Shown here: piece by piece, positions 28,585 to 39,705 of the stretch | Numbering within the stretch: the stretch's first letter is position 1 | Layout of the letters: each line of letters opens with the position of its first letter | Notes under the pieces: generated by a model | What the model saw: the letters and a program-made list of their open reading frames with translations, nothing else | Told to the model about the DNA's origin: nothing | Databases searched by the model: none | From: Patescibacteria group bacterium | Lineage (GTDB): Bacteria > Patescibacteriota > Microgenomatia > JAMCYU01 | Assembly: GCA_023473585.1 (NCBI GenBank) | Contig: JAMCYU010000004.1 | Location: 66,033-130,032, forward strand | Direction of reading: 5' to 3' | Length of the DNA: 64,000 nt | Program-made: the position numbers and the translations under genes

Positions 28585-28613
28585 TTGTGAGCAAAACGTC
28601 TTTCTGATATAAT
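28585..28613 (+). promoter_or_regulatory. sigma70-like promoter of tRNA cluster
   Basis: TTGTGA, 17 nt spacer, TATAAT; 14 nt upstream of tRNA-Leu. Confidence 0.4.
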
Positions 28614-28626
28614 TCTTTTTGCCTTT

Positions 28627-28713
28627 GGGCAAGTGGCGAAACTGGCAGACGCGCAGGCTTCAGGAGCCTGTTCCCTTTAACAAGGAATGGAGGTTCGAGT
28701 CCTCTCTTGCCCA
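28627..28713 (+). tRNA. tRNA-Leu (CAG)
   Basis: Class II cloverleaf: acceptor GGGCAAG/CUUGCCC, anticodon loop UUCAGGA, long variable arm, T-loop UUCGAGU. Confidence 0.8.
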
Positions 28714-28718
28714 CTTAA

Positions 28719-28805
28719 GCCGAGGTGGTGAAATCGGTAGACACGCAGCCTTGAGGAGGCTGTACCCTTAAACAAGGTGTGCAGGTTCAAATCCTGTCCT
28801 CGGCA
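28719..28805 (+). tRNA. tRNA-Leu (GAG)
   Basis: Acceptor GCCGAGG/CCUCGGC, anticodon loop UUGAGGA, long variable arm. Confidence 0.8.
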
Positions 28806-28888
28806 CAGCATAAGTGGGAGTTCGTTTACCCCGCTGATTGCGGAGCAATTTTGCGGGGAGTCTCCCCGAGAGCACTTAAAATAGAGAA

Positions 28889-29066
28889 TGACCGCTTAGC
28901 TCAACGGTGGAGCGCGACATTTACACCGCGCCTGCACTGGCCGGTTAGTTCAGTTGGTAGAACGCCTCGTTTACATCGAGGAAGTCGGAGGTTCGAGTCC
29001 TCCATCGGCCACAGTTTCGGCGGGCAGGTCGAAGAGGTTGGTGGTTCGAATCCACCAGCGGTCACC
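28889..29066 (+). other. two tRNA-half-like segments flanking tRNA-Val (5' half 28889-28938, 3' half 29012-29066 ending in encoded CCA)
   Basis: GACCGCU (5') and AGCGGUC-A-CCA (3') are perfectly complementary acceptor-like strands. The 5' piece has a canonical D-arm, the 3' piece a canonical T-arm GGUGGUUCGAAUCCACC. No canonical anticodon arm can be assembled. Confidence 0.3.
28939..29011 (+). tRNA. tRNA-Val (UAC)
   Basis: Acceptor GGCCGGU/AUCGGCC, anticodon loop UUUACAU, T-loop UUCGAGU. Confidence 0.8.
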
Positions 29067-29072
29067 AGAAGC

Positions 29073-29933
29073 TTATATTTTCGTTTTTTTCCATCGGCGG
29101 TAAAGAATAACTCCACCCAAAACCGGCACCCAGATAACCCCATAAACCATAATCCAAATTCCCTTTTCGGCCAAACCTCTTCCGGTATTGATTAAGGATC
29201 TGACGGCTAATTTAAAGACGACGGCCGGTCTAAAAGCCTGGCTTGGAGCGTAGGGAAGAGCCATTTCGTCTGAAGATAAATAAATCGTGATTTTTGATAA
29301 ACTGGCGGTTTGTTCCAAATATTTTTGCCTGCCTTTTAAAGCATCAATTTGATCCTGAAGACCAATCAGCTCCCGTTGAACCGTTAAGAGGTCCTGAACT
29401 TGTGCCGCCTTGTTCATAATTTCTTCAAATTTACTTTTGGTCGCTTCCAAAGTTTTTAAACGGGCCTCCAAATCAACATATTGGTCGGTTACGTCTGTTC
29501 CCATAACATTTTCTGAAGTAACCTTAACGGCAAGTTTTCGGTATTCGTCAATCGTCCCTTTAACTTTATCGGCGGGTATTCTTACCACAACTGTGGCAAA
29601 AGGCGCTTCTTCGGGTTGGCTAATAGTGCTTGAAACCATAAAACCGCCGTTCGTTTTGGCCAGATCGATGATTTTGTCAGCAACTTCCTTGACTTTTAAA
29701 ACGACCAAAGACATTGAGGTTTCTTCAACGATAATTCTTTTAGCCTGGTTCGTCGGCGCCGATTCTTGCTGAAAAGAAAGACGCGAAGGAAGGGGAGCGG
29801 AAGAAAAAAATTCGGAATAATTGGTTACCCTAGATAAACCGAAAGGAGAAACGCCAAAATAGGGCCGTAAGATAAAATAAACCAGGGCTATAAGAAGAAG
29901 GGAAGAGAGTTTGTGATTTTTAATCCAATCCAT
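29073..29933 (-). CDS. DUF4349-like membrane-anchored coiled-coil protein
   Basis: Start assigned to the internal Met (MDWIKNHK...) because the longer ORF runs into tRNA-Phe. N- and C-terminal TM segments with a central coiled coil. Confidence 0.45.
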   Translation of the reverse strand: MDWIKNHKLSSLLLIALVYFILRPYFGVSPFGLSRVTNYSEFFSSAPLPSRLSFQQESAPTNQAKRIIVEETSMSLVVLKVKEVADKIIDLAKTNGGFMVSSTISQPEEAPFATVVVRIPADKVKGTIDEYRKLAVKVTSENVMGTDVTDQYVDLEARLKTLEATKSKFEEIMNKAAQVQDLLTVQRELIGLQDQIDALKGRQKYLEQTASLSKITIYLSSDEMALPYAPSQAFRPAVVFKLAVRSLINTGRGLAEKGIWIMVYGVIWVPVLGGVILYRRWKKTKI

Positions 29934-29968
29934 AACTTCATGATAAAATTGAATAAAGTGTTTGTCAA

Positions 29969-29997
29969 GTAAACCCAAATTTGGTAGAATAAGTCGT
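29969..29997 (+). promoter_or_regulatory. sigma70-like promoter upstream of tRNA-Phe
   Basis: TTGTCA, 17 nt spacer, extended -10 TGgTAGAAT. Confidence 0.4.
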
Positions 29998-30023
29998 GTA
30001 CTTCCAAAACAAAGTTTGTACAT

Positions 30024-30096
30024 GCCGAGGTAGCCAAGGCGGTCACGGCGCGTGTCTGAAAAACATGAGATGACAGTTCGATTCTGTCCCTCGGCA
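30024..30096 (+). tRNA. tRNA-Phe (GAA)
   Basis: Acceptor GCCGAGG/CCUCGGC, anticodon loop CUGAAAA, T-loop UUCGAUU. Confidence 0.75.
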
Positions 30097-30162
30097 CTAG
30101 AAATTTACTCAGGAAACGTCTTTTGCGAAAATTATTTTTCGCAAGTAAATTTCTAGTGTGAA
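30094..30162 (+). repeat. ~65-nt palindromic hairpin element (paralog at 39277-39337)
   Basis: CACTAGAAATTTACT...AGTAAATTTCTAGTG outer 15-bp inverted repeat with a nested CTTTTGCGAAAA/TTTTTCGCAAG inverted repeat; begins at the 3' end of tRNA-Phe. Confidence 0.5.
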
Positions 30163-30213
30163 CACGTTTTAAAAGAAGATGTTTACACTGAAAAATCGTT
30201 TAGATTTTTTAGT

Positions 30214-30284
30214 GCGGGTGTGGTTTAATGGTAAAATAACTCCCTTCCAAGGAGTTGACGGCAGTTCGATTCTGCTCACCCGCT
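30214..30284 (+). tRNA. tRNA-Gly (UCC)
   Basis: Acceptor GCGGGUG/CACCCGC, anticodon loop CUUCCAA. Confidence 0.8.
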
Positions 30285-30349
30285 CAAGTCGTTGAGCGAG
30301 GCTCGCTAAAGGCGGCCCGCTCCCGAGTCAAACTCGGTTCGTAAAAGTT

Positions 30350-30420
30350 TTCGGGATCGTCTAGCGGTAGGACAGCAGCCTTTGGAGCTGCGAACCTAGG
30401 TTCGAATCCTAGTCCCGAAG
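30350..30420 (+). tRNA. tRNA-Gln (UUG)
   Basis: U1-A72 start as in bacterial tRNA-Gln, D-loop AGCGGUA, anticodon loop CUUUGGA. Confidence 0.7.
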
Positions 30421-30454
30421 CCGATTCGACTCGCGAAAGAATCATATTAATTAT

Positions 30455-30540
30455 GCCGGGGTGGCGGAACTGGCAGACGCGCAGGACTTAAAATCCTGTG
30501 ATGCTAACACATCGTGAGGGTTCGAGTCCCTCTCTCGGCA
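30455..30540 (+). tRNA. tRNA-Leu (UAA)
   Basis: Class II; anticodon loop CUUAAAA, long variable arm, T-loop UUCGAGU. Confidence 0.75.
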
Positions 30541-30598
30541 CAAAGGATGTTAATAATTATCACTTGCTAAATAGCGTGAGGTAATATACACTTAAGAC

Positions 30599-31024
30599 GT
30601 GAAAGACCTTAAGGAAATAAGAAGTGTTATACCGCTAATCATATGGTGGTGTGAAGGGACAAAACCCAGACGTGATAAGAGGTGGAAAAACGCAGTCCTT
30701 TGCCCAATAGAGGTTAGCAACACTGATCCAAAAATTATTAAAATATTTAGAGATTATCTTGTACAAGAATTGGGGGTTTCAGAAAAAGGTATAAAGGGTC
30801 AACTGCAAGTTCATGAAGGAGATAATAAAAGTGAACTTGAGATTTATTGGTCAAAAATAACCGATATTCCATTGAGTCAATTCAATAAAACTATCATAAG
30901 AAAAATCGGAAATAAACCTGGAAAGAGTAAAGGAACTTTCAAATTAAGATTTTACAATAAAAGAGTATATAAAAAACTAGAAAGCTCTTTAACTAAATTT
31001 TTGAAGCTCTTTAACGGAGTGTAG
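30599..31024 (+). CDS. hypothetical protein embedded in tRNA cluster
   Basis: 141 aa ORF, GTG start 8 nt after a TATACA -10. Its stop codon lies inside the 5' end of tRNA-Pro. No recognisable domain. Confidence 0.3.
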   Translation: MKDLKEIRSVIPLIIWWCEGTKPRRDKRWKNAVLCPIEVSNTDPKIIKIFRDYLVQELGVSEKGIKGQLQVHEGDNKSELEIYWSKITDIPLSQFNKTIIRKIGNKPGKSKGTFKLRFYNKRVYKKLESSLTKFLKLFNGV

Positions 31025-31091
31025 CGCAGTTGGCTAGCGCGCCTCGTTTGGGACGAGGAGGTCCCCGGTTCAAGTCCGGGCACTCCGACCA
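31015..31091 (+). tRNA. tRNA-Pro (UGG), CCA encoded
   Basis: C1-G72 pair typical of bacterial tRNA-Pro, anticodon loop UUUGGGA, 3' end ...CACUCCG-A-CCA. Confidence 0.8.
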
Positions 31092-31140
31092 ACTTAAAAG
31101 TGAGGGTTTGGTTCATAGCAGAACAATTCACTAGGGTTAC

Positions 31141-31212
31141 GCGGGAGTAGTTCAGCAGTAGAACGTTTCCTTGCCAAGGAAAAGGTCGCGGGTGCGAATC
31201 CCGTCTCCCGCT
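31141..31212 (+). tRNA. tRNA-Gly (GCC)
   Basis: Acceptor GCGGGAG/CUCCCGC, anticodon loop UUGCCAA. Confidence 0.8.
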
Positions 31213-31278
31213 CAAGCGCCTTTGGCGACTTGAGCGAGGCTCGCCTCGCCTGAAAGGCGGGCGGCCCGCTCTATATTT

Positions 31279-31530
31279 ATGTTTATTGTTTACGTCCTTC
31301 AAAGTCTCAAAGATAACAAGACATACGTTGGATATACCGACAATTTTGAGAGACGATTCAAACAGCATAATTCAGGGAAATCAAAATCTACAAAAAATCG
31401 AGCGCCATTTAAATTACTCTTCGAAGAAGAATTTGAAAATTCAGTTGAAGCGAAAAAACGAGAGTTGTGGTGGAAAAGCGGAATTGGAAGAAAGAAACTG
31501 AAGGAGTATTTTGATAAGATCAAGAAATGA
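31279..31530 (+). CDS. GIY-YIG nuclease family small protein (YhbQ/UPF0213-like)
   Basis: 83 aa; IVYVLQSLKDNKTYVGYTDNFERRFKQHN matches the GIY-YIG (GIY...YVG..R...H) pattern. Follows tRNA-Gly and a GC-rich hairpin. Confidence 0.65.
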   Translation: MFIVYVLQSLKDNKTYVGYTDNFERRFKQHNSGKSKSTKNRAPFKLLFEEEFENSVEAKKRELWWKSGIGRKKLKEYFDKIKK

Positions 31531-31853
31531 CAGAAAAGATATGTTTTAAGCGAGGGCTCTTTGGAGCGCTTCCCGGATATTTTTGCCGCCAAACCAACCT
31601 TTAAGATATAAAATTGTGTGTTTGTTCCGATGCCAGTCCTGAAGATAATATTTATCAATACGTCCACCCCTTTTTAAGAAAATAGCGATTAGTTCATCGA
31701 TAGAGGATTTTGTATTTATACCTTATTATAACACACCCAAAATTTAATTTCTCCGAGAGCTTGATAAGCTTCTTGTAACTTGATAAAATAGTTTTAATTG
31801 CCTCGAGCAGACGCGTTACAACGCGATTTGGTATAATCAAATCGCTAGTTTTT

Positions 31854-31927
31854 GCTCTCGTAGCTCAATTGGATAGAGCAGAGGGTTTCTAACCTTCAGG
31901 TTGCGTGTTCGAATCACGCCGAGAGCG
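31854..31927 (+). tRNA. tRNA-Arg (UCU)
   Basis: Acceptor GCUCUCG/CGAGAGC, anticodon loop UUUCUAA. Preceded by extended -10 TGgTATAAT embedded in the 8-bp inverted repeat GCGATTTG...CAAATCGC. Confidence 0.75.
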
Positions 31928-32047
31928 CAAAAAGAAGCGCGCGGTTGGGGGGTTCGCTTGCCCCGTAGACGACTTTAAGGAGTTCTTCGGGGAGTCCCTC
32001 TGGAGGCGCACGATAAGTTGGGAAAAGACAGGTGTTTTATCCCATAT

Positions 32048-32120
32048 GGTGGATGTAGCTCACCAGTAGAGCGCCCGCCTGTGAAGCGGGAGGAAGCGGG
32101 AGCATCACCCGTCATCCACC
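32048..32120 (+). tRNA. tRNA-His (GUG) with encoded G-1; atypical D- and T-loops
   Basis: 8-bp acceptor including G-1:C73 (His hallmark) and anticodon loop CUGUGAA. D-loop ACCAGUA lacks G18G19; T-loop AGCAUCA lacks the UUC motif. Confidence 0.5.
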
Positions 32121-32153
32121 CATAAAGACTTAGGCCGTTACGACGACATATAG

Positions 32154-39155: not shown

Positions 39156-39201
39156 CGGTTCATTTTAACGCATATTAATTCGGATTACTTACGATATTTT
39201 G

Positions 39202-39274
39202 TGAGCGACCAGGGGCTCGAACCCTGAACCTATTCCTTAAGAGGGAATTGCTCTACCAATTGAGCTAGTCGCCC
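39202..39274 (-). tRNA. tRNA-Lys (CUU)
   Basis: Reverse complement gives acceptor GGGCGAC/GUCGCUC, anticodon loop CUCUUAA, T-loop UUCGAGC. Confidence 0.8.
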
Positions 39275-39276
39275 TA

Positions 39277-39337
39277 AAAATTTGCTTGCAAAAAATCCTT
39301 TTTGCAAAAGTCGTTTCGCGAGTAAATTTTCAGGGTA
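39277..39337 (-). repeat. ~62-nt palindromic hairpin element (paralog of 30094-30162)
   Basis: Minus strand CCTGAAAATTTACTCGCGAAACGACTTTTGCAAAAAGGATTTTTTGCAAGCAAATTTTTAGG is ~80% identical to the 30.1 kb element. Overlaps the GIY-YIG stop codon and abuts the 5' end of tRNA-Lys. Confidence 0.5.
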
Positions 39338-39596
39338 AACCCTTCTTTTTATTTAAAATTAGTTTAATTTTATAATCCCTAGCCCATTTTTTAATAGCGC
39401 TTTCTCTTTTTCGTGCCTCTGATTGATTATTATATTCTTCAAAATATTTGAGTGTTACTGGTCTCTTTGGTCTAAGTGATTTTGCGCCTTTAATATTATC
39501 ATTATTATGTTCTATTATCCTTCTTTTGATATCGGTCGTTATTCCTGTGTAAAGGGACCCATCACTACATTCTACAATATAAACATACCACTTCAT
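39330..39596 (-). CDS. GIY-YIG nuclease family small protein (YhbQ/UPF0213-like)
   Basis: 88 aa; YVYIVECSDGSLYTGITTDIKRRIIEHN is a GIY-YIG motif. No SD; the ATG is 6 nt after a hairpin. Confidence 0.7.
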   Translation of the reverse strand: MKWYVYIVECSDGSLYTGITTDIKRRIIEHNNDNIKGAKSLRPKRPVTLKYFEEYNNQSEARKRESAIKKWARDYKIKLILNKKKGLP

Positions 39597-39602
39597 CGTG
39601 TT

Positions 39603-39635
39603 CGCACTGTAAAATCGTCAAAATTTTACAGTGCG
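39603..39635 (-). promoter_or_regulatory. perfect 13-bp stem hairpin overlapping the tRNA-Arg 3' end and preceding the GIY-YIG start
   Basis: CGCACUGUAAAAU-uuugacg-AUUUUACAGUGCG; no U-tract follows. Confidence 0.45.
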
Positions 39636-39705
39636 CCCCTGGCAGGAATCGAACCCGCATTACTGGTTCCGAAGACCAGAGCTTTATCCGTTAAGCTACA
39701 GGGGC
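39634..39705 (-). tRNA. tRNA-Arg (UCG)
   Basis: Acceptor GCCCCUG/CAGGGGC, anticodon loop CUUCGGA, T-loop UUCGAUU. Confidence 0.8.

Follow-up and report, generated by a model that had tools for sequence, protein, structure and literature searches.

The 64,000-nt window analyzed here (positions 66,033 to 130,032 of contig JAMCYU010000004.1 from a Patescibacteria group bacterium) carries two small genes, termed g1 and g2, which are predicted to encode GIY-YIG nucleases and which lie directly behind tRNA genes. The window has a GC content of 41%, and the relatives of its proteins are labelled Roizman-, Gottesman-, Blackburn- and Daviesbacteria. ARAGORN detected 15 and Rfam 14 tRNA genes in the 64 kb, and 11 tRNA genes are clustered in a single array (28627–32121). 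Within this array, g1 follows tRNA-Gly(GCC) and is separated from it by a GC-rich, structured spacer of 65 nt. On the minus strand, g2 starts 36 nt past tRNA-Arg(UCG) and is followed by tRNA-Lys(CUU). A first-pass annotation of this DNA had described two GIY-YIG genes inside tRNA units, and all elements of that description were recovered at the same positions (Table 1). The perfect 13-bp hairpin reported before g2 (39635–39603, minus strand), which takes in the last 2–3 nt of tRNA-Arg and ends 6 nt before the ATG, was found again by an inverted-repeat search. The 62-nt palindrome reported between g2 and tRNA-Lys is present, but it is imperfect and about 64 nt long (39335–39272; -13.5 kcal/mol), and its 3' arm includes the first 3 nt (GGG) of tRNA-Lys.

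Table 1. Features of the g1 and g2 loci and of the surrounding tRNA genes in the window.
Feature	Position	Strand	Basis
tRNA-Gly(GCC), host of the g1 cassette	31141..31213	+	ARAGORN; Rfam tRNA model, 68.6 bits
Last 5 nt of tRNA-Gly(GCC), CGCTC	31209–31213	+	
hp1 of the g1 locus, extended hairpin (tRNA end CGCTC, AT/GC hairpin 31214–31231, complementary GAGCG 31232–31236)	31209..31236	+	folding, -18.7 kcal/mol, ends closed
hp2, GC-rich conserved hairpin, GAGCG-A-GGCTCGCC...GGCGGCC-CGCTC	31232..31271	+	covariance model R1, 41 bits, E=4.8e-8
g1, 83 aa, catalytic-domain-only GIY-YIG protein, UPF0213/SLX1-like branch	31279..31530	+	PF01541, E=2.7e-16
tRNA-Arg(UCG), host upstream of g2	39633..39705	-	ARAGORN, Rfam
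5' module of g2: 13-bp hairpin, mini-palindrome GTG-CGAA-CAC, 6-nt spacer	39597..39635	-	inverted-repeat search
g2, 88 aa, YhbQ/UPF0213-type GIY-YIG nuclease (predicted)	39330..39596	-	PF01541, E=1.3e-19
3' module of g2: GGGTTTACCC over the last codons, TGA stop, imperfect palindrome	39272..39342	-	
tRNA-Lys(CUU), conserved partner downstream of g2	39201..39274	-	ARAGORN
tRNA-Gly(UCC), bearer of a module copy without open reading frame	30214..30285	+	ARAGORN, Rfam
Solo module: short hp1 (CGCTC-AAGTCGTT-GAGCG) and hp2 (30294–30322)	30281..30322	+	R1, 39.8 bits, E=1.1e-7
ORF141, second nuclease-type gene of the array, candidate LAGLIDADG-like fold	30599..31024	+	

Both gene products match the GIY-YIG family PF01541 well above its cut-off of 22.6 bits (g1, 60.1 bits; g2, 70.7 bits), and no further GIY-YIG open reading frame (ORF) was found in the window. 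The g1 and g2 proteins share 35% identity (E=4e-11), and each consists of a single domain and ends with the catalytic domain. Residues Y5, Y16, G18, R26, H30, N31 and E62 are invariant in a 22-sequence alignment of the g1 family, as are Y6, Y16, G18, R25, R26, H30, N31 and E65 in a 22-sequence alignment of the g2 family. The motif residues of GIY-YIG nucleases, i.e., the Tyr of GIY, the Tyr-x-Gly of YIG, the Arg and the metal-binding Glu, are present in both families. The g2-family profile matched the UPF0213 structures 1ZG2 (BH0048; E=3.4e-19) and 1YWL (EF2693; E=6.7e-18), which were also the closest PDB sequences for the g1-family profile (E=5.1e-11 and E=8e-11, respectively). Both profiles matched SLX1 too, more weakly. 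Since UPF0213 structures were matched and the model of group I intron endonucleases scored far below its cut-off, g1 and g2 are classified as bare catalytic domains of the YhbQ/SLX1-like branch and as predicted nucleases.

The g1-family alignment retrieved 80 loci from species-representative genomes (designated by the letter L), 71 of them with full-length matches. Nearly all stem from Patescibacteria of many classes, together with single metagenome-assembled genomes (MAGs) of Melainabacteria, Omnitrophica and Elusimicrobiota. A same-strand tRNA gene ended at most 350 nt before the ATG in 57 of the 71 full-length homologues (80%), with 46 such genes within 150 nt and a median distance of 73 nt. 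In the same tRNA-rich loci, the positional expectation was 3.5%, and 7% of the control ORFs of at least 100 aa had such a tRNA. The tRNAs concerned were Gly-UCC (34), Gly-GCC (10), Gly-CCC (3), Met-CAU (7) and others (3), and most of the Met-linked genes fell into one part of the protein tree. For g2, the order tRNA-Arg(UCG)–g2–tRNA-Lys(CUU) was found in 11 of 11 close homologues (the window, its six closest metagenomic relatives and four homologues looked up individually) in at least 4 different protein-gene neighbourhoods. Distant YhbQ-like relatives (46–59% identical, from bacteria of very varied GC content), by contrast, had an upstream tRNA in only 2 of the 68 that were assessable, i.e., that had enough upstream sequence. 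Thus, tRNA linkage is derived in Patescibacterial lineages and does not characterize the YhbQ family as a whole. The question posed in the first-pass annotation, whether other GIY-YIG copies are also linked to tRNA genes, is answered in the affirmative for the Patescibacterial homologues; only distant YhbQ-like relatives elsewhere are unlinked.

Additional GIY-YIG paralogues occur in related arrays after tRNA-Arg(UCU), after tRNA-Pro, and just before tRNA-Met, tRNA-Leu and tRNA-Gly. The spacer after tRNA-Arg(UCU) in the window (31929–32048) is GC-rich and contains no ORF; L010 and L023 have a further GIY-YIG gene at this place. In a small sub-branch of the g1 family (L031 3240–3330, L073 2570–2720 and L075 2385–2475), the ORF starts 1–11 nt past the tRNA, which is Leu-UAG, Pro-GGG and Leu-UAA, respectively. 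These three loci share a GCGAGGCTCG core downstream of the ORF, within sequence resembling a tRNA 3' half (GGTTC-[insert]-(G/A)AATC...), and in L073 the stretch bearing GCGAGGCTCG ends with a 12-nt copy of the 3' end of the upstream tRNA-Pro.

The spacer between tRNA and ORF in the g1 family is a bipartite element of two hairpins, hp1 followed by hp2. In hp1, the last 5 nt of the tRNA (CGCTC, or CGCAA in the case of Met) and their complement (GAGCG or TTGCG) enclose a variable, mostly AT-rich hairpin. This arrangement forms a continuous helix with closed ends in all 46 distinct loci (mean of 13.8 bp). The family form of hp2 is GAGCG-A-GGCTCGCC-[variable apex]-GGCGGCC-CGCTC, and the covariance model places it 33–60 nt before the ATG in most loci, also where no upstream tRNA was detected. 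In the alignment of 54 distinct hp2 sequences, 99.1% of the cells were paired; this alignment was fitted to the model and so favours structure, and controls with slid partners fell to 39–48%. Changes on both sides were seen in 6 of the 13 pairs, amounting to 44 double-sided cells as compared to 9 in shuffles, and none of 500 shuffles reached as high a value.

The 3' strand of hp2 repeats the 3' end of the tRNA (CCCGCTC). In 40 of 49 loci, the tRNA and hp2 carry the same dinucleotide after CCGC (permutation mean of 26, maximum of 35), and the 5' dinucleotide of hp2 is its complement. When hp2 is read as 5'-GCG(A)GG...CCCGC-U, it looks like the acceptor stem of the tRNA before it, down to the discriminator base. 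No Rfam 15 family matched hp1 or hp2; between 31100 and 31900, only tRNA models were hit, even with E-values up to 10. Over the stems of both hairpins, 22 G.T and 1 A.C mismatches were counted, counts that are phylogenetically non-independent. Transitions should yield the two types equally, and therefore selection appears to act on the sense strand. The selected hairpin form thus appears to be that of the transcript, or possibly of single-stranded DNA of the top strand, and a symmetric palindrome or cruciform of double-stranded DNA is disfavoured by the same counts.

Judged by its distribution, hp2 belongs to the cassette and not to tRNA-Gly genes in general. It was present at none of 8 tRNA-Gly genes without g1 in the fetched loci, and the model gave no match over 70.8 kb of other Patescibacterial loci, which include a tRNA-Gly(UCC) without g1. 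On these grounds, a general tRNA-Gly trailer and a dispersed repeat of the REP (repetitive extragenic palindromic) type were ruled out. A canonical intrinsic terminator was discarded as well, because the T-run past hp2 is not conserved. The sole exception to the link with g1 is the solo module behind tRNA-Gly(UCC) in the window, where no GIY-YIG ORF is present and tRNA-Gln comes next downstream; it is probably the remnant of a g1 cassette after loss of the ORF. Most g1 loci have one copy of hp2. Two to four tandem copies precede the ORF in L021, L027, L033, L040, L049, L050 and L062, and L021 repeats units of 121 nt. Lone GCGAGGCTCG cores were also seen away from GIY-YIG genes (L014 3438, L071 4661, L061 5111, L012 4804 on the minus strand, and L046 6029), in the different two-hairpin context CCCGCC-loop-GGCGAGGCTCGCC-loop-GGCGG. 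Behind g1 itself, the 323 nt up to tRNA-Arg(UCU) (31531–31853, plus strand) hold no credible ORF; they contain a degenerate hp2-like sequence (AAGCGAGGGCTC...GAGCGCTT, about 31548–31575), a promoter-like site (31761–31789) and a terminator-like hairpin (31823–31845).

The g2 family has structured modules of its own on both sides of the gene. A 5' hairpin that takes in the end of tRNA-Arg, followed by an element of the GCGTAAACGC or GTGTAAACAC type, was found in 8 of 10 distinct relatives; this element reads GCG-TAAA-CGC or GTG-TAAA-CAC before the ATG, with GTG-CGAA-CAC as the variant in the window. The 3' side mirrors the 5' side, with GGG-TTTA-CCC(TG) and then a hairpin that uses the 5' end of tRNA-Lys as its 3' arm. 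Because GGGTTTACCC is read in two frames in relatives (C-termini ...GLP* and ...GFTL*) or placed past the stop codon, it is a nucleic-acid signal and not a coding constraint. A dispersed genomic repeat was ruled out for GGGTTTACCC, of which the window holds one exact copy. Elsewhere in the window, the trailer of tRNA-Phe (30095–30166, plus strand) forms a long hairpin with arms at 30095–30116 and 30137–30158, the stem of which takes in the last 3 nt of the tRNA. It is followed by GTGTGAACACG, which is similar to the GTGCGAACACG directly before the ATG of g2, and no ORF lies beyond. This hairpin may be another cassette remnant or a general design of trailers.

Evidence for movement came from pairs of g1 loci. 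L057 (a MAG of the Parcubacteria group) and L061 (Sungiibacteriota), compared over loci of 6.2 kb, have in common only a segment of 336 bp with 94.6% identity, which spans 85 nt before the ATG to 17 nt past the stop codon. The flanks gave no other match, tblastx included, and the tRNA-Gly genes have different anticodons. The only ORF of this segment is that of the GIY-YIG protein, and no integrase or recombinase is encoded there. L012, with tRNA-Gly(UCC), and L014, with tRNA-Gly(GCC), have hp1, hp2 and the ORF start 100% identical; along the whole tRNA body the two loci differ, and the identity begins exactly past CCCGCTC. L001 and L004 share 89% identity from hp2 to position +37 and differ in hp1. 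By such comparisons, cassettes of the g1 family have been transferred between unrelated genomic contexts.

Traces of insertion were found next to the tRNA ends. A copy of the tRNA 3' end of 11 nt, with one mismatch allowed, lay 5–39 nt past the stop codon in 6 of 58 g1 loci (0.065 expected), and a 7-mer of the tRNA 3' end past the stop codon was present in 6 of 55 (0.36 expected). In L057, tRNA-Gly(UCC) and the g1 cassette are separated by an insert of about 190 nt (2726–2915) that gave no Rfam match. An 18-nt stretch of the tRNA 3' end (CGATTCTCCCATCCCGCA) is directly repeated at the two borders of this insert, and the downstream copy precedes hp1. Since this copy of the tRNA end lies about 190 nt past the true tRNA, a second insertion at the same site is suggested. 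Decay was frequent, with in-frame stops, frameshifts, truncations or fragments in 11 of the 80 g1 loci, one of which lies on CP066689.1, a complete chromosome of Roizmanbacteria. In close pairs, synonymous differences outnumber the others (9:1, 7:1, 11:2 and 18:8), and the protein is therefore kept functional while it is present. An empty g1 allele from a close relative was not recovered among the protein-anchored loci. A selfish element targeting tRNA loci had been one suggestion of the first-pass annotation, and it gains support from the junction at the tRNA end and the near-identical cassettes in unrelated contexts, and further from the direct repeats of the tRNA 3' end, the pseudogenes and the ORF-less remnant.

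Promoter-like sites were located before tRNA arrays (28585–28613, 29962–29990 and 31761–31789), and no credible promoter was found in the spacers between tRNA and ORF of g1 and g2. The g1 spacer contains only a weak match (9/12) buried inside hp2, and a spacer promoter belonging to the cassette was therefore set aside. Judging from this arrangement, and from spacer helices that accept G.U but hardly any A.C (22 against 1), as expected of structure in the sense transcript, co-transcription of both genes with the tRNAs is plausible. It had been noted earlier that neither gene has a Shine-Dalgarno (SD) sequence. This is true, but it is not special to them, because just 13 of the 53 window genes have an SD match of at least 4 nt. 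A TAnAAT-type box of the leaderless kind, ending about 6 nt before the ATG, precedes 12 of the 53, which points to leaderless mRNAs as a common type in this organism. The structure-dependent translation that had been proposed from the missing SD could not be upheld, since most genes lack an SD and many look leaderless. An mRNA cut from a tRNA precursor, with a 5' hairpin or a short leader behind hp2, would match these translation features of the genome.

Taken together, g1 and g2 are read here as the protein components of miniature, horizontally mobile selfish cassettes that form two related families in tRNA 3' flanks and would be expressed by read-through and spread by their nuclease; we hold this reading with slightly more confidence than doubt. 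As delimited by the comparisons, a cassette measures about 340 bp, encodes about 80–90 aa and sits immediately 3' of particular tRNA genes in Patescibacteria. It consists of a structured 5' module and an ORF for a GIY-YIG catalytic domain, the module being composed of a hairpin that pairs the last nucleotides of the tRNA and of an element with a second copy of the tRNA 3' end. The cassette would be promoterless and transcribed by read-through from the tRNA promoter. The hairpins would act in the sense RNA, where processing by RNase Z and RNase P would free the mRNA and the hairpins would protect its ends; the acceptor-stem-like hp2 may provide a further signal for processing or attenuation. 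The short leader without SD would be translated like the many leaderless-type mRNAs of the genome. The nuclease would drive spread in the manner of a free-standing homing endonuclease by breaking the unoccupied tRNA flank, and repair of the break would use the conserved tRNA gene as homology, in some loci together with the downstream copy of the tRNA 3' end.

Several points weigh against the reading as selfish cassettes. Its support is comparative sequence analysis throughout, and the locus sets were chosen via the protein, so that they do not give the frequencies of solo modules and empty sites. Known GIY-YIG homing endonucleases owe their specificity to a DNA-binding domain that neither protein has, and the group I intron endonuclease model TIGR01453 (cut-off of 56 bits) gave 23.7 and 15.3 bits for the two proteins. 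Flanking direct repeats are limited to about 10% of the g1 loci and are absent or decayed elsewhere. The strong purifying selection, with 60–85% identity across deep lineages, fits a host function too. For the g2 family, no transfer event or empty site was found among the loci compared, and its constant place between the same two tRNAs would fit vertical inheritance equally well. The g2 homologues of L161 and L162 begin 2 nt past the tRNA and have no hairpin, and the 5' module is thus not indispensable.

Among known systems, the nearest precedent for both cassettes by analogy is SegB, a free-standing GIY-YIG homing endonuclease encoded within the tRNA gene cluster of phages T4 and T6 (PMC2330249; PMC13096335). 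Its gene likewise lies outside introns and between tRNA genes, and it is inherited preferentially with the flanking tRNA region (PMC2330249; PMC13096335). The differences are that SegB is phage-borne, whereas g1 and g2 are chromosomal in Patescibacteria, that cleavage is proven for SegB and g1 and g2 are known here from sequence alone, and that the hairpin copying the tRNA end is a property of the g1 and g2 cassettes with no known counterpart for SegB. Judging from the homing-endonuclease family, SegB is presumably larger and has a separate DNA-binding region. Unlike this family, g1 and g2 are bare catalytic domains of 83–88 aa in the UPF0213/SLX1-like branch, and neither has the Seg/I-TevI layout of an N-terminal GIY-YIG domain with a C-terminal DNA-binding domain. 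Sporadic distribution, horizontal transfer and decay, as in homing endonucleases, were found for the g1 family only.

By clear profile membership, by their size (about 80–110 aa) and by having no extra domain, the proteins resemble UPF0213/YhbQ/YazA, from which they differ in their linkage, seeing that relatives outside Patescibacteria are tRNA-linked in just 2 of 68 cases. The structure-specific nuclease SLX1 acts with the partner SLX4, and no partner is evident at g1 or g2. Integrase-bearing elements at tRNA 3' ends, i.e., phages and islands, also insert exactly at the tRNA 3' end and leave the tRNA intact, and in some g1 loci the far border carries the tRNA 3' end as a direct repeat; in contrast to them, the g1 cassette has only about 340 bp, encodes a GIY-YIG protein and no integrase, and shows repeats in about 10% of its loci. 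In organelle transcripts, tRNAs and tRNA-like 't-elements' punctuate the RNA, and mRNA borders are released by the tRNA-processing enzymes. The mRNAs of g1 and g2 would likewise lie between tRNAs, with the acceptor-stem-like hp2 at the border, which by analogy suggests release of the g1 mRNA by tRNA-processing enzymes; the differences are the location on a bacterial chromosome and a loop of hp2 that is not T-loop-like. A hairpin beside a short complement of the flanking target, and insertion 3' of a fixed short sequence, are also features of IS200/IS605 elements, but the g1 cassette has no HUH transposase and no matching right-end hairpin was found. A survey of tRNA introns in Patescibacteria described intron-borne HNH and LAGLIDADG genes and did not mention free-standing genes in tRNA flanks (PMC13011429). 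The literature search found no description of GIY-YIG cassettes in tRNA flanks and no functional study of the bacterial UPF0213 family, the search term YhbQ being obscured by surname matches.

The strongest rival, although on the whole unlikely, is a host function: g1 and g2 would be vertically inherited housekeeping nucleases within tRNA operons, serving for instance in repair or in resolving structures at heavily transcribed tRNA loci, and the hairpins would be processing or regulatory signals of a normal tRNA–mRNA operon. The strong purifying selection on the ORFs with invariant catalytic residues is in line with this, as are the sense-strand, RNA-type pattern of hairpin mismatches and the array order Leu-Pro-Gly-g1-Arg-His, which recurs in several Microgenomates-type loci. 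It is strongest for g2, given the order kept in 11 of 11 homologues. Points against a housekeeping role are 11 decayed copies among 80 g1 loci, one of them in a complete genome, a 95%-identical cassette in unrelated contexts, the same cassette behind different tRNA-Gly isoacceptors, and direct repeats of the tRNA 3' end around some cassettes. The relatives in other phyla lack tRNA linkage, and a word-limited search of a collection of 5.8 billion sequences with the g1 protein returned only 107 matches.

More doubtful still is a mini-transposon guided by nucleic acid, in which the hairpin in cis would steer the small GIY-YIG nuclease to CCCGC-NN at tRNA 3' ends. The tRNA 3' end is represented in the hairpin twice, by its complement and by a copy, a logic like that of IS200/IS605 elements with their guides and hairpin ends. 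Between cassettes of the Gly and Met types there is three-way covariation of tRNA end, complement and copy, the insert joins the tRNA exactly 3' of CCCGCTC, and this architecture of a sequence, its complement and its copy recurs in two families that are only 35% identical. A nuclease consisting of the domain alone would moreover need an outside source of specificity. However, RNA folding explains the covariation equally well, and the right end of g1 cassettes was searched and revealed no comparable hairpin. GIY-YIG enzymes hydrolyse DNA, and we know of no strand transfer by them. The scarcity of A.C mismatches argues against a symmetric DNA cruciform and not against a top-strand hairpin. If true, such an element would be a new class of minimal autonomous mobile elements, with a nuclease of about 80 aa and no DNA-binding domain; it would mean nucleic-acid-guided targeting by the smallest known nuclease module and a first function for the widespread UPF0213/YhbQ family. 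The readings overlap, as hairpins at the RNA level and mobility at the DNA level are not mutually exclusive.

A type III-like toxin paired with an antitoxin RNA, or a defence module, in which the upstream structured repeats would neutralise or regulate a toxic nuclease, is very improbable. In its favour are the 2–4 tandem hp2 copies before some ORFs, the terminator-like appearance of hp2 in the window and a weak similarity of g1 to PDC-S14, a candidate defence family (E=5.5e-4). In most loci hp2 is single, though, the T-run behind it is not conserved, and such systems are not marked by a tight, tRNA-specific placement. PADLOC gave no significant assignment (a weak partial match for g1, none for g2), and a defence system was discarded on this basis. 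A phage origin was rejected, as 11 phage records gave only weak matches (at most 44% identity). That small ORFs merely survive by chance in the spacers of a tRNA-rich window (15 tRNAs in 64 kb), with their adjacency meaningless, can practically be dismissed in view of 80% linkage against 3.5–7% in controls from the same loci, the specific tRNA identity, the constant strand, the conserved spacing and module, the linkage in the g2 family and the covariation of hp2.

The array that hosts g1 contains a further gene of interest. ORF141 lies between tRNA-Leu(UAA) and tRNA-Pro(UGG) and belongs to a conserved family with 131 homologues and no Pfam model. Its end overlaps the first bases of tRNA-Pro(UGG) in the window and in all four fetched homologue loci (three distinct homologues). 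Homing-endonuclease-like genes of two kinds thus appear to reside in this array, and because g1 and ORF141 occur in the same array, tRNA arrays are supported as a habitat of selfish nuclease genes. The positions of the Gly isoacceptors in this array are swapped relative to the related arrays L019, L023, L030, L035 and L036. In the window, Gly(UCC) with the solo hp2 comes after Phe, and Gly(GCC) with g1 after Leu-Pro; the related arrays have the orders Phe-Gly(GCC)-g1 and Leu-Pro-Gly(UCC)-g1-Arg-His. Co-conversion of tRNA and cassette might be the cause.

For the UPF0213/YhbQ/YazA family, which is widespread, structurally solved and related to SLX1, the analysis provides one branch with a defined genomic habit, a cis element and signs of mobility, and it names the tRNA 3' flank and the hairpins hp1 and hp2 as concrete candidate substrates of this branch. 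Since hp2 lies outside Rfam, it is a candidate structured RNA, and it may represent a bacterial case of mRNA release from a tRNA precursor by tRNA-like punctuation. Selfish nuclease genes of several kinds, GIY-YIG as well as LAGLIDADG-like, appear to reside in the tRNA arrays of the ultra-small Patescibacteria genomes, in addition to the introns and homing endonucleases already known to be abundant in the rRNA and tRNA genes of these bacteria.

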